64,000 nt of DNA from a phage: sequence record PZ386965.1. One strand, 5' to 3'. Positions within the stretch are counted from its first letter, which is position 1. Each line of letters starts with the position of its first letter. The notes below the pieces were generated by a model. It ran no database searches. It had not been told where the DNA came from and was given only the letters and a program-made list of their open reading frames with translations. A program made the position numbers and the translations under genes. This document shows positions 1,867-36,634 of the stretch, one piece after another.

Positions 1867-3849
1867 ATGTCACTTCTCTCTCCGGGCGTTGAGCTCAAAG
1901 AAACTACCGTACAGAGTACTGTAGTTAATAACTCCACTGGTACTGCTGCCCTGGCTGGAAAATTCCAATGGGGACCTGCATTCCAGATTAAACAAATCAC
2001 TGATGAAGTTGCATTGGTTGATATGTTTGGTACTCCTAATACGGATACAGCAGATTATTTCATGTCTGCTATGAACTTCCTTCAATATGGTAATGACCTT
2101 CGTGTTGTACGCGCAGTTGATCGTGATACTGCTAAGAACTCATCTCCTGTAGCAGGCAATATTGAATTCACAATCTCTGCAGCCGGTAGTAACTATGCGG
2201 TTGGTGATAAAATTATCGTTAAGTATTTGACCGAAACTGTTGAAGCAGATGGTTATGTCACTTCAGTTGATGTCGATGGTAAAATTCTTAACATTTATAT
2301 CCCAACCGGTAAAATTATTGCTCGTGCAAAAGAAATTAATGAATATCCGGCATTGGGTTCTAACTGGACCGCCGAAGTTGCCAGTTCTTCTTCTGGACTC
2401 TCTGGCGTTATTACAATTGGTTCTATCGTAACCGATTCGGGTATTCTGTTGACTGAAGTTGAAACTTCTGAAGAAGCTATTACTTCTCTAACTTTCCAAG
2501 AATCTATTAAAAAATATGGTGTACCAGGCGTAGTTGCTCTTTATCCTGGTGAACTTGGCGACCAGCTCGAAATTGAAATCGTATCTAAAGCAGACTATGA
2601 CAAAGGTGCTTCAGCTCAGTTAAAAATTTATCCTGATGGCGGTACTCGTGCATCTACTGCTAAAGCAATCTTTGGATATGGCCCACAAACTGATGACCAA
2701 TATGCAATTATCGTTCGTCGTAACGATGCTGTAGTCCAGAGCGTAGTTCTTTCTACTAAACGCGGTGAACGAGATATTTATGGTAGCAATATCTTCATTG
2801 ATGATTTCTTTGCTAAAGGCGCAAGCAATTATATTTTCGCTACGGCACAAGGTTGGCCAAAAGGTTTCTCTGGCGTAATCAAACTGAGTGGTGGCTTATC
2901 ATCTAATGAAACGGTTGACGCTGGTGATTTAATGGAAGCTTGGGATTTGTTTGCTGACCGCGAATCTGTTAATGCGCAGTTGTTTATTGCCGGTTCTTGT
3001 GCAGGTGAATCTTTAGAAGTTGCTTCTACAGTTCAGAAACATGTTGTAGCAATTGGTGATTCTCGTCAAGATTGCTTGGTTCTTTGCTCACCGCCACGTT
3101 CAACTATAGTCGGTATTCCTGTTAATCGTGCAGTTGATAATCTGGTTGATTGGCGTACTGCGTCAGGAACTTACACCGATAATAACTTTAATGTAAGTTC
3201 TACTTATGCTGCTATTGATGGTAACTATAAATATCAATACGACAAATATAATGACGTGAATCGTTGGGTTCCATTAGCTGCTGATATCGCCGGTCTTTGT
3301 GCTCGCACAGATAATATTTCTCAGCCTTGGATGTCTCCGGCCGGTTATAACCGTGGACAAATTCTTAACGTTATTAAGCTTGCAATTGAAACTCGTCAAC
3401 CACAACGTGATCGTTTGTATCAGGAAGCTATTAACCCTGTTACTGGTACTGGTGGTGATGGATATGTTCTGTATGGTGATAAAACTGCCACTTCCGTTCC
3501 TTCACCATTTGACCGTATTAACGTTCGTCGTTTGTTCAATATGGTTAAAACGAACATTGGTTCAGCATCTAAATATCGCCTGTTTGAATTGAACAACGCA
3601 TTTACCCGTTCTTCTTTCCGTACAGAGACTTCTCAATATCTACAGGGTATTAAAGCTCTCGGTGGTGTATATAACTTTAAAGTTGTTTGTGATACTACCA
3701 ATAACACCCCAGCAGTTATCGACCGTAATGAATTTGTAGCTACTTTCTACTTACAACCTGCCCGCTCGATAAATTATATTACGTTGAACTTTGTAGCAAC
3801 AGCAACTGGTGCCGATTTCGACGAACTGATTGGTGCTGTAGGTGGTTAA
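1867..3849 (+). CDS. 18: tail sheath protein (gp18)
   Basis: 660 aa, T4 gp18-like length and sequence; TATAAATA late promoter upstream. Confidence 0.95.
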   Translation: MSLLSPGVELKETTVQSTVVNNSTGTAALAGKFQWGPAFQIKQITDEVALVDMFGTPNTDTADYFMSAMNFLQYGNDLRVVRAVDRDTAKNSSPVAGNIEFTISAAGSNYAVGDKIIVKYLTETVEADGYVTSVDVDGKILNIYIPTGKIIARAKEINEYPALGSNWTAEVASSSSGLSGVITIGSIVTDSGILLTEVETSEEAITSLTFQESIKKYGVPGVVALYPGELGDQLEIEIVSKADYDKGASAQLKIYPDGGTRASTAKAIFGYGPQTDDQYAIIVRRNDAVVQSVVLSTKRGERDIYGSNIFIDDFFAKGASNYIFATAQGWPKGFSGVIKLSGGLSSNETVDAGDLMEAWDLFADRESVNAQLFIAGSCAGESLEVASTVQKHVVAIGDSRQDCLVLCSPPRSTIVGIPVNRAVDNLVDWRTASGTYTDNNFNVSSTYAAIDGNYKYQYDKYNDVNRWVPLAADIAGLCARTDNISQPWMSPAGYNRGQILNVIKLAIETRQPQRDRLYQEAINPVTGTGGDGYVLYGDKTATSVPSPFDRINVRRLFNMVKTNIGSASKYRLFELNNAFTRSSFRTETSQYLQGIKALGGVYNFKVVCDTTNNTPAVIDRNEFVATFYLQPARSINYITLNFVATATGADFDELIGAVGG

Positions 3850-26079: not shown

Positions 26080-26109
26080 ATAGTATCACACATCCATGTG
26101 TTTGTAAAC
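26080..26109 (-). promoter_or_regulatory. T4-type early promoter upstream of the alt.-3-position ORF
   Basis: Minus strand GTTTAC, 18-nt spacer, TACTAT; AGGA RBS downstream. Confidence 0.6.
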
Positions 26110-28196
26110 TATCCTTGGACAAATTTAAACGGAACTGATTCTAAATCCATTAAAGATGCTAACAATTTCAATCCTTTAGGTGCACTAGTTTTTTCTACAA
26201 ATGAAGAGAACGATACCGGCTCATCCGATTCGATTTCACCCGTCATAGCAACCACCTCGCCTGTTTCCATGAGAACATCACCATCATAAATGACAGCTTC
26301 GTCCAACTGGTCCGAGGACATGACTTCAGCTTGAATAAATTTAAGGTTGGATTCTAAACCTGCACCAGTGTCAGATGACGCATCTGTAATTTTATTTATT
26401 TGCAAGAGAATGCCTCTAGGCAAAATAATTTCTTGCTCATTAGGGTGATTACTCAACTGTCCTGGATAAATCACGTTAACTTTATGAGCGCCATCAATAG
26501 CCCATCCAACGTTAACACGGATTTGTTCTGGCGCATGCATAGCTGTTCTTACTTGACTAGGAGAAATAGTAACACCTTCATCATTATTGTCAATGTTAAG
26601 CTCTTTGCGAACTTCTTCAGGAGCAAGTCCAAGGGCAACGTTCTCTTTAAACCCACCGAAAATAATAGGAGCTAGTGAAGTGGAAACATAGTTTCTGAAG
26701 TAGAATACCTTATTTTTAACCATTGCTTCGTAAATAGGCATTCTGATAGACTGAGCTCTATATAACGTTAGTCCTTCAGGTAAACGGTCTCCATTTAAAA
26801 ACGCTGAATCAAGACCATCGATAGCGCGTTTAACTTCATCTTCATCTGCAACATCGTAAAAATCTGGTTTATAACGACCTAACAACATATTATTGATATC
26901 GGTATACGCAGAAGAGGCATATTCGCGAATAGCTCGTTTTTCAGCAACAGAGTATTGTTTAGGGTCCCGATTCATTGTTATATTAAAGGTGCCTCTAGCC
27001 GATTCTCGTGCATAAGTATACATCACATTAGACAAGAACGCTGATTTACGTTGTTTCCAAGTTTTTTCAGATACTTCAGCTAAAACGTCGTCAGCCAGTT
27101 GGAAATTATCTCGTCTAAAATCTTCAAACCATTCGTCTTTAATAGAGTCTGCAATTTCATTTGCAGCTTCAACAAAAGCAGCTAATGCTTTAACAGATGT
27201 TGTTTTTTCAGTTTTAATTTTCTTAGCAAACTTTTCTAAAGTTGGCTTAATAACACTACCATAAGAAACTTCATCGGCAAATCTAAAGGATTCATCAATA
27301 CGATTATAAATCTTATTTTCGATATCAGCAACTAAAGTGCCTTTTGCTGTGGACGATGCTTGGGCTAGTACGATTTCATATGCTTCAGGAAGTAATTCGG
27401 CTGTAGCTGGGCCACTAACTTCTTTAGCAGAATTTTCGTATTTCTGGAATAACTCGCCTTCTTGGCGGTCAGCTTCTAAAGATTGACTTGCTGCAATAGC
27501 ACGACGAGAAATTTTGGTGCGAGCAATAACCGGCTTATCTTTACGTTTTTCTTCTACCGCGGCAATAGAACCAGCGATAGCCGTTTCTTTGGTGACCTTT
27601 TCACCGGTCTTTTTACTCACATAAACTTCGCCAACATCAGAATCTACTTTCGTGTACAACTCTGTGTTAATGTTAGGGATGCCTTTAATATCCTCAATGT
27701 TGGCATTTTTACGAACCATCATCACATAGGTGTGTTTACCTGTGAATTGATACATTGCAGACAATACTTTAAAACGACCACCGGTTTTAGTAGAAACTAA
27801 ACGAGCAAGAAGAGTTTGAAGTTGTTGTCCACGTCCTTTCAATTTCTTGGTAGGGAATCGAAACAGAACTGCATCCATACGAAGAGCTTTAACCTGTTCA
27901 TATACTGTATTGAAAATGGTGTTGATTGCATCAATAGGAGCAGGACCAAGGCCGTTTTTCAATTCAGCGAGATTACCCTTTTCAGACAGACTCATAATAA
28001 CAACATGAGCGTATTTGTCGCCAAGTTTAACTTGTTTTACAGCATCGCCTTCGGAAAGATAAGAGAATAAACGAACTACAATATTTGTATCAACATCACC
28101 AATTTTCCAGACTTGTGGAACTTTAGCTTTAGGGTTCAAATTGACGACAGGAAGACTGCCTTCAGATTCAAACACTTCATTTAATTGTTCAGACAT
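26109..28196 (-). CDS. alt: Alt ADP-ribosyltransferase (packaged)
   Basis: 695 aa, T4 Alt size and position between gene 30 and gene 54. Confidence 0.85.
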   Translation of the reverse strand: MSEQLNEVFESEGSLPVVNLNPKAKVPQVWKIGDVDTNIVVRLFSYLSEGDAVKQVKLGDKYAHVVIMSLSEKGNLAELKNGLGPAPIDAINTIFNTVYEQVKALRMDAVLFRFPTKKLKGRGQQLQTLLARLVSTKTGGRFKVLSAMYQFTGKHTYVMMVRKNANIEDIKGIPNINTELYTKVDSDVGEVYVSKKTGEKVTKETAIAGSIAAVEEKRKDKPVIARTKISRRAIAASQSLEADRQEGELFQKYENSAKEVSGPATAELLPEAYEIVLAQASSTAKGTLVADIENKIYNRIDESFRFADEVSYGSVIKPTLEKFAKKIKTEKTTSVKALAAFVEAANEIADSIKDEWFEDFRRDNFQLADDVLAEVSEKTWKQRKSAFLSNVMYTYARESARGTFNITMNRDPKQYSVAEKRAIREYASSAYTDINNMLLGRYKPDFYDVADEDEVKRAIDGLDSAFLNGDRLPEGLTLYRAQSIRMPIYEAMVKNKVFYFRNYVSTSLAPIIFGGFKENVALGLAPEEVRKELNIDNNDEGVTISPSQVRTAMHAPEQIRVNVGWAIDGAHKVNVIYPGQLSNHPNEQEIILPRGILLQINKITDASSDTGAGLESNLKFIQAEVMSSDQLDEAVIYDGDVLMETGEVVAMTGEIESDEPVSFSSFVEKTSAPKGLKLLASLMDLESVPFKFVQG

Positions 28197-28229
28197 AGTG
28201 TTTTCCTTTTAGTAATAATTTATATTTAT

Positions 28230-28252
28230 GCCAAAAAGAGCCCGAAGGCTCT
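28230..28252 (-). terminator. terminator upstream of alt
   Basis: AGAGCC-UUCG-GGCUCU then a U-run on the minus transcript. Confidence 0.65.
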
Positions 28253-28440
28253 TAATCCACAATCGGGAGCAAAGTACGATAAACTTCAAAATTAGGGCCT
28301 TTTTCGTACGTATCAAAATTGTCCATAAAAATATGATAGGAATCGTTATTAGGAAAATCTAATACAATTTGGGAACAAGAGGTGGAAACATCTCCACCAT
28401 CCTTCTTAGCTACAATAACTGTTTCTAAATAAGCTTTCAT
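28252..28440 (-). CDS. hypothetical protein (62 aa)
   Basis: ATG overlaps the ligase stop (TAATG coupling); UUCG-loop terminator follows. Confidence 0.55.
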   Translation of the reverse strand: MKAYLETVIVAKKDGGDVSTSCSQIVLDFPNNDSYHIFMDNFDTYEKGPNFEVYRTLLPIVD

Positions 28441-29933
28441 TATAAACCTGTCTGGGACCACGGTCCAAATACGTCTTCAAACGAATCCGCTTCTGTTTTA
28501 TCAAAACGGAACCCTTTAATAATTGGGAGGAAAATACCTACAGTACCTTCACGGCCTTTAGAATGAACCCAACCATTACATTCACAATCAGCGATACGTC
28601 CAATTAATTTACCTTCACGAGCTTCGGTCATTAATCGTTCACGGTCTAAATCATGACGCTCGTCTAAAGGAATAAGAACCTTTACACCGTCAACTGTTTT
28701 ATGAGTTGTATCTTTAAAACCTGAACCACAATCGGTTGTAATACGACGACAACGTGATACGAGTTCGACACCACCTAATTTGTTAGGGTCTTTAGAGTGT
28801 TCGTAGTATCCTACAACTTCTAAAGCGATATCAATAACTTCTTTAAATTTAATTAGGTTCTTAGAGCGTTTGTTTTCCCAATATGAATCACGGTTTTTAA
28901 GGATAATACCTTCAAGACCTTGGTCAACATATTTTTTATAAACCACTTTAGCTTCGTCAAGATTACGAACTAACTGATTTTCGATTGGCTCAATTCGCTT
29001 AAAGCCTTCAGTCATATTTTCAAGAGCAGCAAAACGAACATCGTATTTCTGACCTTTAATTTTGCCATCAGAATAGACTTCATCTAAAGGAACATAGTCC
29101 CAGGCTTGAAGAACCATACCTTCCGCTTCTTTAGGAGAAATAGTCCCTTGTAGAGATTTATTTGCTAAACCATTTGAAGTGCTACGGTCTGCAACCTGTA
29201 CTTCTTCGGATTCTTCATTATCGCCAAATAAGAACGACAGGTCATTTCCTGAGCTCACAGCCTTTTTAATATCAAATGAATGATAAACTAATTCACCGTC
29301 GATTAAAACCCCATTAGGGTGTCTTTCACGAGCTTCTTTAGTCATTTCCATTAGTTCATCTGCTAATAGGGTAAGACCATGGTATTCATTACCGGCACGA
29401 GAAAAGAATTGAACACCATCATCGCGAACTTCAGCGAAACAACGAGCACCATCGGCTTTTAATTGAGCAAATGCAGGCCATTTAATATTTTTAGTGATCA
29501 ATTTCTCATCATATGCAGATGCTAACATCTGTGGTTGCAATTGAATAAGTCCAGGCCACACCTTATTCGCGATAGACACTGAAGCACCTACTTCAAGGTC
29601 GCGCATCATTACACGACGAAGGACTTCTACATCATCAGGTTTACCATCAGCGATATAACCCATGAGCTCTTTAATTGCAGCATTACCAGTGAGTTTACGA
29701 GTGGCTAATGTAAACTCAATAAAATCCAACATGTCATCTAATTCAAGAAGACCATATGCTTGAGACCTTTCACCTGGTCCTGGCCATTTCTTAATATAAT
29801 ACTGGATACCACGTGCATATGTTAAACGATACACACGTTCAAGTAATTTGTTGTCCTTATTTTTCTTAAGGATTTCTTGTTTTGTTTTAGTAGAACCGAT
29901 CGCAGCTATTTGGTTTAAAATATCTAAAATCAT
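28440..29933 (-). CDS. 30: ATP-dependent DNA ligase gp30
   Basis: 497 aa, strong match to T4 DNA ligase including the KADGAR adenylation motif. Confidence 0.96.
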   Translation of the reverse strand: MILDILNQIAAIGSTKTKQEILKKNKDNKLLERVYRLTYARGIQYYIKKWPGPGERSQAYGLLELDDMLDFIEFTLATRKLTGNAAIKELMGYIADGKPDDVEVLRRVMMRDLEVGASVSIANKVWPGLIQLQPQMLASAYDEKLITKNIKWPAFAQLKADGARCFAEVRDDGVQFFSRAGNEYHGLTLLADELMEMTKEARERHPNGVLIDGELVYHSFDIKKAVSSGNDLSFLFGDNEESEEVQVADRSTSNGLANKSLQGTISPKEAEGMVLQAWDYVPLDEVYSDGKIKGQKYDVRFAALENMTEGFKRIEPIENQLVRNLDEAKVVYKKYVDQGLEGIILKNRDSYWENKRSKNLIKFKEVIDIALEVVGYYEHSKDPNKLGGVELVSRCRRITTDCGSGFKDTTHKTVDGVKVLIPLDERHDLDRERLMTEAREGKLIGRIADCECNGWVHSKGREGTVGIFLPIIKGFRFDKTEADSFEDVFGPWSQTGL

Positions 29934-30199
29934 TTGATGTCCTCGATTTTGGTTACGGTTCTATTATAAGCCACTTCATCTAGAAGCGATTTCAGCGTTT
30001 TCTGATAAGTTGTAATCCATTTACCGAGACCTTCAACATAATATTCTGAAATGTAGATGAACCCTTGTTCAACACACTCTTTAAATATTTCTGCGTCTTT
30101 TACTGAACGAAACAATGGCCAGTCTCGAAAGAACATGTTAACGTGACCGTAGTCACGTGTCGTGTTTTTGCCATCTGTAATATCATGAACTACAAACAT
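29930..30199 (-). CDS. hypothetical protein (position of T4 30.1)
   Basis: 89-aa ORF with ATG start, coupled to gene 30. Confidence 0.6.
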   Translation of the reverse strand: MFVVHDITDGKNTTRDYGHVNMFFRDWPLFRSVKDAEIFKECVEQGFIYISEYYVEGLGKWITTYQKTLKSLLDEVAYNRTVTKIEDIK

Positions 30200-30208
30200 A
30201 ATTAACCC

Positions 30209-31024
30209 TTAACAATTTATAGACCAAGTCCATTTGGACGAATCTAAAGGAAAGTTTTGAATTGTCCACCATGGCTGCATATCGGTTGGCCCTTGGTTTC
30301 GCCAGGTATACGGATTCGACGGAGTGCCAATTTGATTAGGCCATGCACCTGGACTTGTTGTACCAGATTCTTTAAGCAAATCCGCCAATCGTTTTAAAAG
30401 GTCTTCACGATCTGAATCTGAATTATGCTCGGGTGGAACCAAACGAGATTCAATATCATCCCACGTGTGTACACGTTGTGCAGTACGAGGAATGGCATCA
30501 CGTTCACCACGAGCCAACCAATAAATCGGTACATTAAGAATTTCTGCTGCATGGTCACAGTGATGAGCTAAATCGTCAACGTAACAAATCACGTTATATT
30601 TTGTTTTAGCTAGTTCGAATAATTGTTCCTTTGAAGAATCATGACCACACATCATTACTTCAGAGAAAGCGCCTGGGAACAAAGCATTCAAATTAAATTG
30701 TCTATTCAATCGAGCATCAATTGAATCACCTAGCGCCGTCACGGCTACAAAATTATAGTCTTCTTTTAGTTTATTGATAACTCGAAGAGCATCCGAATAA
30801 GGCGCTAAGTAACGAATAAAATCAGAGCTATTATATTTTTCTATTAATTGTTTACCAAGGTTATCGTCTGTATTGAATAGTTTACCAGGAGAAATAAATT
30901 TTTCGTCCTGAATCATTTTTAAAATATGTTCTAATGGAAGATTATATTTTTGGGCAAAATAAGGAAGTCCAGATTGCCAGCTTAAACATACACCATCAAT
31001 ATCAGTCAAAATAGTAGGTTTCAT
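30209..31024 (-). CDS. HAD-superfamily phosphatase-like protein (position of T4 30.2)
   Basis: 271 aa; N-terminal DIDGV motif (HAD motif I) and downstream DD motif; Trp-rich C-terminal tail. Confidence 0.6.
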   Translation of the reverse strand: MKPTILTDIDGVCLSWQSGLPYFAQKYNLPLEHILKMIQDEKFISPGKLFNTDDNLGKQLIEKYNSSDFIRYLAPYSDALRVINKLKEDYNFVAVTALGDSIDARLNRQFNLNALFPGAFSEVMMCGHDSSKEQLFELAKTKYNVICYVDDLAHHCDHAAEILNVPIYWLARGERDAIPRTAQRVHTWDDIESRLVPPEHNSDSDREDLLKRLADLLKESGTTSPGAWPNQIGTPSNPYTWRNQGPTDMQPWWTIQNFPLDSSKWTWSINC

Positions 31025-31479
31025 AAAGAGTCTCTTAATAGGTTTAACACATCAATAAATTCAGCTTCGGTTAGTATTGTATCATCTTTTGTTAGACCAC
31101 TAGCCATGCTGTGCTTCAAAATTTTTCCTTTAGAGGCTTGTAATGCATCACGAAACCCTTTGTTTTGGATCGCGGCTTCAAAATATGCATTTGTGTATAA
31201 TTCTTTCCATGCTTCAGAGTATCTTGAAAATGGAACTCCTAACCAGAAGAGAGTCCCACGGTCTTGAGCTCTTGCATAAGACCTTCCAGCTTGCTGTGCA
31301 GCCAGTCCTGACAGCCCAAATATACGTCTTTGTTGTTCAACATTTTTCACCTTACATCCTTGGAGAAACCCTTCAAGACCTCCGAATTGAATACCATCCA
31401 TAACAAAAGGCCATTGAGCAAAGTTACTTAATGCACATGACGGCCACTTGAAATTACTTCTTATTTCTAATTCAGACAT
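31021..31479 (-). CDS. NADAR/YbiA-like protein (position of T4 30.3)
   Basis: Track ORF begins at GTG; internal ATG gives 152 aa; the LSNFAQWPFVMDG segment resembles the E. coli YbiA FSNFAAWPIKVDG core. Confidence 0.55.
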   Translation of the reverse strand: MSELEIRSNFKWPSCALSNFAQWPFVMDGIQFGGLEGFLQGCKVKNVEQQRRIFGLSGLAAQQAGRSYARAQDRGTLFWLGVPFSRYSEAWKELYTNAYFEAAIQNKGFRDALQASKGKILKHSMASGLTKDDTILTEAEFIDVLNLLRDSL

Positions 31480-31690
31480 CTTTAACACTTATAATTTCAA
31501 CATCAGCCCAATGGCCGTATCCAGGTATACGGTCTTCGATAGATAAATTTCCGTCATTTTTAGGCATTTTAATTGACGTAACGTATGGTTCTAAACGGTT
31601 TTCTGCATAATACGGAAAAACGTCTGTTACACGATAAGTAACTTCAATCATTTCCGTACCAAACAATTTCTGGATTAGTTTATTCAACAT
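31472..31690 (-). CDS. hypothetical protein (72 aa)
   Basis: ORF with ATG start in the early 30.x cluster. Confidence 0.5.
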   Translation of the reverse strand: MLNKLIQKLFGTEMIEVTYRVTDVFPYYAENRLEPYVTSIKMPKNDGNLSIEDRIPGYGHWADVEIISVKDV

Positions 31691-31877: not shown

Positions 31878-31931
31878 ATTTTTCCACTTACTAAAGAAAT
31901 TATTATACTCTAATCCGTCCTTGGATGTAAA

Positions 31932-32546
31932 CTACTTAACGAAATTAATTTCTACCGGATGAACAACAGGTTGAGCAGTGATATATTGAGTAATTGCTTT
32001 CATGACTAGAGCTTCAGAACCAGGATTTTTCTCAACGAATTCACGTGCTTGGTTATGGGCTTCAAGTTCACTTAGTAAACCACTTCGTTGGCATCCACGG
32101 TCTTGAGTACCCTGTTCAGATAAAAAGACGACGATGTATTTTTCATCGTCATACGGTTTAGACGGTTGAGCAAATGTTCCTTTACTTCCAAAAGGAGAGT
32201 TATGACGCCACATCACGCCGTGAGGAGTTTCAACCTTCGTATATTCGTGCGGGCCATTTTTCTTAATTTCTTGATGTGGAACTTCGTAGACCTTAGGGTT
32301 AGGACATTCAATAAAATGCTCATCTAAATCAGTCGAGAATATTAAAGTGAAACAATTACTGAATTTACCGACACCTGCCTGATAAATTTTACCTTCAGAA
32401 GTTCTAATTTCACAAACCGAGCCGGCATCAGTAACTTCTAAAACTTCAAAAGGCTCGATAAGGTCATATGAGAACATGTTTTTAAGGCGTGGAGTAATAT
32501 CCCCATTTTTAAAATTCATTTTATAAAAAGTATTAACTTTAAACAT
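31932..32546 (-). CDS. hypothetical protein (204 aa)
   Basis: ATG with GAGG RBS; no motif recognised. Confidence 0.6.
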   Translation of the reverse strand: MFKVNTFYKMNFKNGDITPRLKNMFSYDLIEPFEVLEVTDAGSVCEIRTSEGKIYQAGVGKFSNCFTLIFSTDLDEHFIECPNPKVYEVPHQEIKKNGPHEYTKVETPHGVMWRHNSPFGSKGTFAQPSKPYDDEKYIVVFLSEQGTQDRGCQRSGLLSELEAHNQAREFVEKNPGSEALVMKAITQYITAQPVVHPVEINFVK

Positions 32547-34762: not shown

Positions 34763-35059
34763 TTACATAAGAAGCAAACGTTCTACCGGAGTACCATCAA
34801 CAGAAATTACTTTATCAAGGCGGAAAGAACGCCACTGACCTAACTCGGTATCGAATGCTCGAACTGATTCACGAGGTTCATAACGAACTTCTGTTGCCGG
34901 ATTGTTATTTTCATATTTGACTTCAAGTTCATCGCGCGAAGCAAACATAGTGCGTACCTCGCCGTTAGCCTTTTCAAATACAACACAATGAACGCCTACA
35001 GACAGAATAGTTTTAATACGTTCACGAAGAACCATAGTTTCTTGTTCAGTTAAAATCAT
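34763..35059 (-). CDS. hypothetical protein (31.1/31.2 position)
   Basis: Track ORF begins at GTG; internal ATG gives 98 aa. Confidence 0.6.
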   Translation of the reverse strand: MILTEQETMVLRERIKTILSVGVHCVVFEKANGEVRTMFASRDELEVKYENNNPATEVRYEPRESVRAFDTELGQWRSFRLDKVISVDGTPVERLLLM

Positions 35060-35060
35060 A

Positions 35061-35642
35061 TTATTCACCACAAAAGTTTCGGATTTGTTCCCAATTCAGA
35101 GAACGAAGATTATTACGAGAGTACTGAATTACTTCAATACCGGCTTGTTTTAGAATGTCTGCCCAATTTTCAGGAGATCTGTCATATAATTCTGCATATA
35201 CAACCTTTTTAATACCTGACTGTGTAATAGCTTTAGTGCAATCAGGACATGGAGAAAGCGTCGTATACAACGTAGCACCTTCAATAGAATTACCTTTACG
35301 AGCTGCAAACAAAATTGCATTCAATTCCGCATGGATTTCATTATTAGCAGACCATGCACTATGAGCGGCCCGATGTTCTTTAGCCAAAACAAAATTATCC
35401 ACCCGTCCAAATGCTGTAGTGCCTTCTTTATGCCCAGCAACGATGACCGGGCTTGGTTTATTCTTCAACCAACCGTTTTCGGATGCATGTTCGCAACAGT
35501 TTGTACCACCTGAAGGAGAGCCATTATAACCTGTAGAAATAATGCGTCCATCTTTTTCAATGACGGCACCAACTTTCCATGAACAACATTTTGATTCTTG
35601 AGAAATCAGATAAGCAATCTGAAGATATGTGCTAGCTTTCAT
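35061..35642 (-). CDS. cd: dCMP deaminase
   Basis: 193 aa, same as T4 Cd; HAE and PCxxC zinc-binding deaminase motifs. Confidence 0.93.
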   Translation of the reverse strand: MKASTYLQIAYLISQESKCCSWKVGAVIEKDGRIISTGYNGSPSGGTNCCEHASENGWLKNKPSPVIVAGHKEGTTAFGRVDNFVLAKEHRAAHSAWSANNEIHAELNAILFAARKGNSIEGATLYTTLSPCPDCTKAITQSGIKKVVYAELYDRSPENWADILKQAGIEVIQYSRNNLRSLNWEQIRNFCGE

Positions 35643-36634
35643 TATTGAACCTTATTAATATGAGTTAACAGCTCTTTAGTTTGTTCCCAACTGATGCACG
35701 CATCGGTAACGGAAACGCCATAGGACATATTATCAGAAATTTTTTGATTTCCTTCATGTAGGAATGATTCTATCATAATTCCTTTGACCAAATCATTAGC
35801 TGCTAAATTTTTACCAATACCAATTTGATTGCTATAATGCCCAGCAGCGTTTGCATGGCTACAGTCAACCATTACATAATGATTCAGACCTACGGCCCTT
35901 GCTTTGTTAGAAGCTTCTTGAATATCAGAAGAATGATAGTTCGGGCCATTGGTCCCGCCACGCAATACGATATGCGTATTCTGATTACCTTCAGCTTCAA
36001 CAATGCCTACAGTACCATCGACGTCCATACCCATATACCGATGAGGCCAGGCGGCACTATACATCGCGTCTGTAGCTACTTTAATAGAACCATTGGTTGC
36101 GTTCTTGAAGCCTACGCACATCGGTAGACCTGAAGCAATTTCACGATGTGTCTGACTTTCAGTCGTACGGGCGCCAATAGCAACCCATGAGAAAATACCA
36201 GAAAGATACTTAATCGTGAATGGGTCTAATACTTCAGTTGCTAATGGAAGTCCCATACGTAGAAGTTTACGACACAATGTTCGTGCAACTATAAGACCGT
36301 GGTTCATATCAAAACTTCCGTCAAGATATGGATCATTTACAAGACCTTTCCAACCTACGGTAGTTCGAGGCTTTTCAAAATAAACGCGCATCACTAACAG
36401 AACATTAGGAAGACGAGTTTGAAGTTCAGCCAGACGTTTGCCGTATTCAACAGCAGCAATAGGGTCATGAATTGAACAAGGACCTACAACAATAAGTTTG
36501 CGTGGGTCTTCACCATTCATAATCGAATTAACTTGTTCGCGATGAGAAGCCACTTGTGATGCGTAAGCTTCCGACAAAGGAATAATCTCAGCCAGTTCTT
36601 TTGGAGAAATAAGTTTTCCGACGACAGGTAACAT
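35642..36634 (-). CDS. 3-deoxy-D-arabino-heptulosonate-7-phosphate (DAHP) synthase, AroG/AroF-type
   Basis: 330 aa; LIVVGPCSIHD, RVYFEKPRTTVGWKGL and WVAIGARTTESQ blocks align with E. coli AroG; N-terminus about 8 residues shorter than AroG; not present in T4. Confidence 0.85.
   Translation of the reverse strand: MLPVVGKLISPKELAEIIPLSEAYASQVASHREQVNSIMNGEDPRKLIVVGPCSIHDPIAAVEYGKRLAELQTRLPNVLLVMRVYFEKPRTTVGWKGLVNDPYLDGSFDMNHGLIVARTLCRKLLRMGLPLATEVLDPFTIKYLSGIFSWVAIGARTTESQTHREIASGLPMCVGFKNATNGSIKVATDAMYSAAWPHRYMGMDVDGTVGIVEAEGNQNTHIVLRGGTNGPNYHSSDIQEASNKARAVGLNHYVMVDCSHANAAGHYSNQIGIGKNLAANDLVKGIMIESFLHEGNQKISDNMSYGVSVTDACISWEQTKELLTHINKVQ

Follow-up and report, generated by a model that had tools for sequence, protein, structure and literature searches.

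The window, by which we mean the whole 64,000-nt stretch analyzed in this study (sequence record PZ386965.1), is a segment of a Tequatrovirus (T4-like) genome; the 2.6 kb surrounding adfN shares 98% identity with Shigella phage SSE1, and its identity to many Escherichia phages is 97%. The adfN gene (gene 30.3) lies on the minus strand at 31021..31479, exactly where the original prediction had placed an ORF; with its ATG at 31479 and its stop at 31021, it encodes a protein of 152 aa, predicted to be a phage-class NADAR DNA ADP-ribosylglycohydrolase. An alternative in-frame GTG start is present at 31488, three codons 5' of this ATG. Both ends of adfN overlap a neighboring gene, the ATG with the stop of gene 30.4 (ATGTCTGA) and the stop with the ATG of gene 30.2 (ATGA). 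Compared to the annotated T4 region, the genes on the minus strand of the window follow the T4 order 30.5, 30.4, 30.3, 30.2, 30.1, 30, alt.1 and alt, and their products are, in this order, a 65-aa protein, a 72-aa protein, AdfN, a 271-aa DIDGV-motif protein, gp30.1 (DUF3045; 29930-30199, minus strand), an ATP-dependent DNA ligase (gene 30; 28440-29933, minus strand), a 69-aa protein and the 695-aa ADP-ribosyltransferase Alt (26109-28196, minus strand). The neighbors named in the original prediction, namely the DIDGV-motif protein, the DNA ligase and Alt, are all found on the adfN strand.

Upstream of gene 30.5, the position of T4 gene 30.6 is taken by a 204-aa ORF (31932-32546, minus strand) that matches phrog_17531 and gave no Pfam match. 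It was considered as a diverged gp30.6 and rejected, as there is no similarity; the strongest early-type promoter match of the region comes right after it. Elsewhere in the window, a gp31.1 ortholog (34763-35071, minus strand) matches Pfam WYL_2 (Sm-like SH3 beta-barrel; E-value 5.2e-10), in agreement with the T4 annotation and its SH3 beta-barrel fold. Directly upstream of the dCMP deaminase gene, where T4 has cd.1/cd.2, there is a gene for a 330-aa DAHP synthase (35642-36634, minus strand; Pfam DAHP_synth_1, E-value 5.6e-75), an aromatic-amino-acid auxiliary gene that is present in 213 phage records and is already annotated as AroG or phospho-2-dehydro-3-deoxyheptonate aldolase.

AdfN matches the Pfam family Phage_30_3 (PF08010) over profile positions 1-138 of 138, with an E-value of 4.8e-69 and a score of 231 bits (cut-off 36), much too strong for a chance match, and it also matches phrog_652. 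In an ungapped alignment with T4 gp30.3 (NP_049816), a protein of equal length, 148 of the 152 residues are identical. The four differences (window residue first) are K11R, E89P, I120V and M125I, all of them conservative or surface-type, with I120V and M125I flanking His123. The two proteins also share their position between genes 30.4 and 30.2, residues E36, K43 and H123, and an intact C-terminal helix; apart from the four substitutions, the window differs from T4 in the gene upstream of 30.5 and in the interruption of 30.3', an out-of-frame internal ORF annotated in T4. The gp30.3 family was found by tblastn in 1511 phage records, including vB_EcoM_G2285, whose AdfN is identical to the window protein, and T4 and T2 at 97.4% identity. 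Distant members (38% identity) were observed in jumbo-phage-like metagenomic contigs of up to 308 kb, near NUDIX and Thg1-like genes. As for 30.3', the ORF has 75 aa in T4 and is reduced in the window to 34 codons (31239-31343, minus strand, inside adfN), and because of this interruption it was rejected as a conserved feature. Its shortening despite the 97% protein identity of AdfN suggests that T4 30.3' is no real gene.

The relationship of AdfN to the NADAR family was examined with profiles, with a predicted structure and at the level of individual residues. Searches of the PDB, NCBIfam and PADLOC with the single AdfN sequence gave no match, and in the Pfam search the window protein alone falls short of the NADAR family (PF08719); because the single-sequence searches were empty, a family profile or a structure was needed to see the link. 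An alignment of 54 gp30.3-family sequences was used as the query. In hhalign it matched E. coli YbiA with a probability of 93.8% (E-value 1.7e-7), and in a profile search of the PDB the YbiA structure 2b3w was the sole significant match (E-value 0.0011). Nineteen of the 54 members also match PF08719 individually, with a best E-value of 1.5e-7, so that the profile check for NADAR/DUF1768 was passed by way of the family. The core segment KWPSCALSNFAQWPFVMDGIQF (AdfN residues 11-32) was aligned by hhalign with YbiA residues 27-44 (GDFSNFAAWPIKVDGKTW), and the alignment runs on through the catalytic E-x3-Q-x2-K motif.

The AlphaFold2 model of AdfN, built with the same alignment, is of high confidence (pLDDT 93.6, pTM 0.88). 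It contains helices at residues 35-41, 47-54, 58-66, 89-105, 107-115 and 138-151 and hairpins at residues 25-32 and 76-85, and thus presents the NADAR alpha+beta fold, which consists of a core helical bundle with two small flanking beta-hairpins. The best Foldseek match of the model in the PDB was again YbiA (2b3w; E-value 4.2e-4, TM 0.66), followed by 8bau (Phytophthora PnNADAR with ADP-ribose) and 8bat (the DarG1-type NADAR of Geobacter lovleyi), and no structure other than a NADAR was found in the PDB at E < 1.

The residues that would form the active site are also retained. The predicted catalytic glutamate, Glu36 (codon at 31372..31374, minus strand), is equivalent to E48 of YbiA, E43 of PnNADAR and E88 of the E. 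coli C7 NADAR, and the predicted phosphate-coordinating catalytic lysine, Lys43 (31351..31353, minus strand), is equivalent to K55, K50 and K95 of the same proteins. The pair was aligned by hhalign to E48/K55 of YbiA, and its E-x6-K spacing matches that of PnNADAR E43/K50 and C7 E88/K95. The catalytic role of C7 K95 and PnNADAR K50, the equivalents of Lys43, has been described (PMC11543638), and the structures and mutants of these two enzymes suggest the corresponding residue roles in AdfN. A third residue, His123 (31111..31113, minus strand), belongs to the last beta-strand and defines the phage class: in published comparisons, this position is His in phage NADARs, Glu in the YbiA type and Asp in the DarG1 type (PMC11125620, PMC11543638). 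The hhalign block stops one residue short of His123, which faces E125 of YbiA and is located at the end of the model strand 120-122. E36, K43 and H123 are invariant across the 54 homologs. The C-terminal alpha-helix (residues 138-151; 31027..31068, minus strand) is intact, as judged from the model and from the full-length identity with T4; the defective RB69 allele lacks this segment. A missing profile match, an unrelated fold and absent catalytic residues, each of which would speak against a NADAR, were all tested for; what was found was the profile match to YbiA, Foldseek matches to NADARs only and an invariant Glu/Lys pair, and the claim of a NADAR/YbiA-like core thus stands. By profile, modeled fold and catalytic residues, AdfN is a NADAR-family enzyme.

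YbiA is the best PDB match of AdfN by both profile and fold, and the motifs SNFA-WP-x3-DG and E-x3-Q-x2-K are common to the two proteins. Together with the HAD phosphatase gene (30.2) that adjoins adfN, this likeness could be read as a sign that AdfN is an auxiliary metabolic enzyme, a YbiA-like N-glycosidase for damage control in the riboflavin pathway. HAD phosphatases take part in riboflavin synthesis. However, the class-specific Glu125 of YbiA is replaced by His123 in AdfN, the published phylogeny groups AdfN with the DarG1-type NADARs and not with YbiA (PMC11825919), and the HAD neighbor gp30.2 resembles deoxyribonucleotidases. A riboflavin-related function is therefore scarcely credible to us. 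The identity between the two proteins is 19%. YbiA is encoded on the chromosome, next to dinG, and has an N-glycosidase role on riboflavin intermediates. Its gene has been described as belonging to a LexA-controlled operon, and YbiA gives no in vivo protection against DarT1 (PMC11125620).

The neighbor gp30.2 (30209..31024, minus strand) is predicted to consist of a phosphatase core (residues 1-195), which has a HAD fold and resembles 5'(3')-deoxyribonucleotidases, and a variable, disordered tail. A 43-sequence alignment shows little or no variation at D8-x-D10, T96, K132 and D150-D151 (none at D8, D10, K132, D150 and D151), which corresponds to the HAD motif I DxD, motif III Lys and motif IV acidic pair, set on a Rossmannoid fold. 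The AlphaFold2 core has a pLDDT above 90, and Foldseek returned more than 100 HAD matches at E <= 0.001, the best being the deoxyribonucleotidase 2jao (E-value 3.7e-8); the Pfam HAD_2 match is sub-threshold (E-value 0.013). These conserved motif residues, the modeled core and the match to 2jao bear out the HAD-like assignment made from the DIDGV motif. The core is approximately 90% identical to that of T4, and the tail (residues ~196-271; 30209-30440, minus strand) has diverged, is rich in Pro, Trp and Asn and is predicted to be disordered. Homologs of gp30.2 range from ~196 to 347 aa, a difference in length which indicates that the tail is a variable appendage.

The phage-record distributions of the two families are near-identical (30.2 in 1439 records, 30.3 in 1511). 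When the 30.2-family HMM was run on the fetched loci, 30.2 was found beside 30.3 only in Straboviridae (T4, RB43, Ac42 and Aeh1) and was missing near the 30.3 homologs in the jumbo-phage-like metagenomic contigs, in three short NCBI contigs and in Ralstonia phage RSP15. The linkage of 30.2 and 30.3 was thus rejected as a sign of functional coupling, as it is restricted to Straboviridae and is indistinguishable from lineage synteny.

Among the characterized NADARs, the DarG1 antitoxins of DarT1-NADAR (DarTG1) operons, which form the BC4488 NADAR family and include 8bat of Geobacter lovleyi and the C7 protein of E. coli (PMC11543638), resemble AdfN in their fold and in the Glu/Lys pair with E-x6-K spacing; DarG1 is also the clade reported to be nearest to T4 AdfN (PMC11825919), and guanine-ADPr hydrolysis is the chemistry that the DarG1 NADARs and T4 AdfN have in common. 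Unlike DarG1, AdfN is the product of an orphan gene with no adjacent DarT1, it carries His and not Asp in the last strand, and it consists of the core domain only, the N-terminal extension being a feature of DarG1 (PMC12945103). No ART domain was found in the flanking 30.4 or 30.2, PADLOC gave no match, and the nearest ART is that of Alt, of the exoenzyme type, ~3 kb away. Other phage orphan NADARs, AdfN(Bas32) and AdfN(Bas60) of T5-like and Vequintavirinae phages, are guanine-ADPr-specific and counter DarTG1 as AdfN(T4) does; however, they belong to other NADAR clades than the gp30.3 class, were acquired independently, and neutralize DarT1 without infection; for the gp30.3 class, a T-even context is required (PMC11825919).

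The T4 protein has been studied experimentally, and the statement in the original prediction that its function in T-even phages is uncharacterized is outdated. According to citations in PMC11543638 and PMC11125620, a bioinformatic classification of 2012 had placed the gp30.3 proteins in the NADAR superfamily. In vitro, purified T4 gp30.3 hydrolyzes ADP-ribose on DNA when it is linked to guanine but not when it is linked to thymine (PMC11125620, Toxins 2024), and G-ADPr hydrolysis by the T4 NADAR was also described in PMC12945103. The DarTG1 resistance of T2 and T4 was mapped to gene 30.3, which was renamed adfN, for anti-DarT factor NADAR (PMC11825919, Johannesman et al., Nat Commun 2025). In that study, adfN was necessary and sufficient for T-even DarTG1 resistance, as its deletion sensitized T4 and T2 and its ectopic expression rescued RB69; the deletion phenotype was specific to DarTG1; E36A, K43A and a C-terminal truncation impaired T4 AdfN; and the purified protein stripped ADP-ribose from DarT1-modified DNA in a dot-blot assay. 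RB69 itself is DarTG1-sensitive, as a frameshift deletes the last 15 residues of its AdfN and reduces the activity (PMC11825919). Thus, the family, fold, catalytic residues, in vitro activity and in vivo anti-defense role of AdfN are all already published (2012 to 2026), and the anti-DarTG function that had been proposed for the window protein matches the deletion and complementation genetics obtained with its 97%-identical T4 counterpart.

T4 AdfN gave uninfected E. coli no protection from DarT1 in two studies and cannot substitute for DarG1 in uninfected cells (PMC11125620, PMC11825919), which implies that the in vivo mechanism needs more than the enzyme. In the literature, T4 AdfN is inactive against thymine-ADPr and DarTG2, and its full in vivo activity depends on a T-even factor. 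Could gp30.2 be this potentiating factor? Such a role would fit the observation that RB69, which has its own 30.2, is rescued by ectopic AdfN(T4), while uninfected E. coli, T5 and Bas25 are not (PMC11825919), as well as the near-matching record counts of the two families; gp30.2 might act by keeping AdfN stable, by localizing it, or by processing either the ADP-ribose that AdfN releases or a phosphoribosyl remnant. All other T-even-specific genes, however, fit equally well, and 30.2 is absent near the 30.3 homologs outside Straboviridae, which weakens the idea. We regard it as very unlikely that gp30.2 is the factor in question.

The transcription context bears on a different proposal, that of a link between AdfN and Alt. 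In a 10-kb scan for sigma-70/T4-early-like promoters, the top match was GTTTACA-18 nt-TATAAT (31902..31931, minus strand; 11/12 consensus positions). It lies just upstream of 30.5-30.4-adfN-30.2-30.1-ligase, and this consensus match, together with the gene position, suggests early expression of adfN. Between alt.1 and alt, a UUCG hairpin with a T-run is followed by TATAAATT (28215..28253, minus strand). The hairpin, AAGAGCC-UUCG-GGCUCUU, has a folding energy of -14.4 kcal/mol (z -3.95). At the equivalent site of T4 (3525-3560 of the T4 locus), AAAGGCC-TTCG-GGCCTTT is followed by the canonical late promoter TATAAATA, and the stem changes between the two hairpins are compensatory (GAGCC/GGCUC versus GGCC/GGCC). 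The exact late promoter TATAAATA was not found upstream of alt in the window, the late-promoter-like TATAAATT being there instead. The hairpin and TATAAATT are probably a terminator plus late promoter that separates alt from the adfN unit, and Alt is a virion-packaged protein according to the T4 record annotation, in keeping with late expression driven by a promoter of its own. Moreover, Ac42 and Aeh1 carry alt on the opposite strand. The original prediction had put adfN in the same early unit as the HAD-like protein, the ligase and Alt. The shared strand holds for all of them, but co-transcription with alt is doubtful in view of the hairpin, TATAAATT and the strand of alt in Ac42 and Aeh1, and a single adfN-alt transcription unit was rejected.

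These observations also concern the suggestion that AdfN regulates the ADP-ribosylation carried out by the phage itself, by removing the (RNA-linked) ADP-ribose that Alt, ModA and ModB put on host proteins. The location of adfN, which shares its strand with alt and lies ~3 kb upstream of it, is consistent with such a role. Alt-type enzymes modify arginine in proteins, a target unlike the substrates of NADARs. NADAR genes near ART genes were seen in several T4-like phages, both in the loci examined here and by Iyer et al., who remarked on T4-like NADARs as early genes near ARTs (PMC9503650). However, the published NADAR activities are all on guanine-linked ADP-ribose in nucleic acids, that is, on N-glycosidic ADP-ribose of guanine (in some classes cytosine) in DNA or RNA (PMC11125620, PMC11543638, PMC12945103), and a regulator of phage-driven protein ADP-ribosylation is thus unsupported. 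The conserved hairpin and the probable late promoter part alt from the adfN unit. For the jumbo-phage-like contigs and Ralstonia phage RSP15, the listed Pfam matches and annotations showed no ART within 6 kb of the 30.3 homologs. These homologs without a nearby ART, and the DarTG1-specific phenotype of the adfN deletion (PMC11825919), speak against the regulation of Alt or Mod enzymes, which we consider exceedingly unlikely as the role of AdfN.

An alternative hypothesis is that AdfN acts mainly on soluble or RNA-linked ADP-ribose derivatives, such as immune signals, RNA-repair by-products and G-ADPr RNA, and that the repair of DarT1-modified DNA is one facet of this activity. Removal of G-ADPr from RNA was reported for all NADAR classes, the phage class included (PMC12945103), distant 30.3 homologs are near NUDIX and Thg1 genes in the jumbo-phage-like contigs, and a NUDIX ADP-ribose pyrophosphatase is encoded in the 30.3 region of Ac42. 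However, the sole in vivo phenotype demonstrated is DarTG1 counter-defense via DNA de-ADP-ribosylation (PMC11825919), and the contents of the window point to no soluble substrate specifically. As the main role this appears unlikely; activity on RNA-linked or soluble ADP-ribose derivatives is possible as an additional function of AdfN.

Taken together, the ORF at 31021-31479 is very probably the adfN ortholog of this Tequatrovirus, a minimal single-domain N-glycosidase of the NADAR superfamily that belongs to the phage (gp30.3) class and serves in DarTG1 counter-defense. By orthology, the window AdfN is most likely a guanine-N2-ADP-ribose glycohydrolase that acts on DNA and repairs phage DNA modified by DarT1. 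From its 97% identity to the T4 protein we infer guanine-ADPr hydrolase activity and protection against DarTG1, along with inactivity against thymine-ADPr and DarTG2 and the dependence on a T-even factor for full in vivo activity. When this phage infects a DarTG1 host, the DarT1 toxin would ADP-ribosylate guanines in the phage DNA and block its replication. AdfN, which is probably made early, would bind the ADP-ribose, with Lys43 in contact with its phosphates and Glu36 with its distal ribose, and would hydrolyze the guanine-N2-ribose bond, with His123 standing in for the third acidic catalytic residue. Release of ADP-ribose would then restore unmodified DNA, and replication would go on.

The adfN allele of the window is intact and not truncated in the manner of RB69, and the current picture of AdfN is unchanged by it. 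The presence of adfN would indicate that this phage has the means to escape DarTG1, and such a mark may be useful for predicting the host range of T4-like therapeutic phages.
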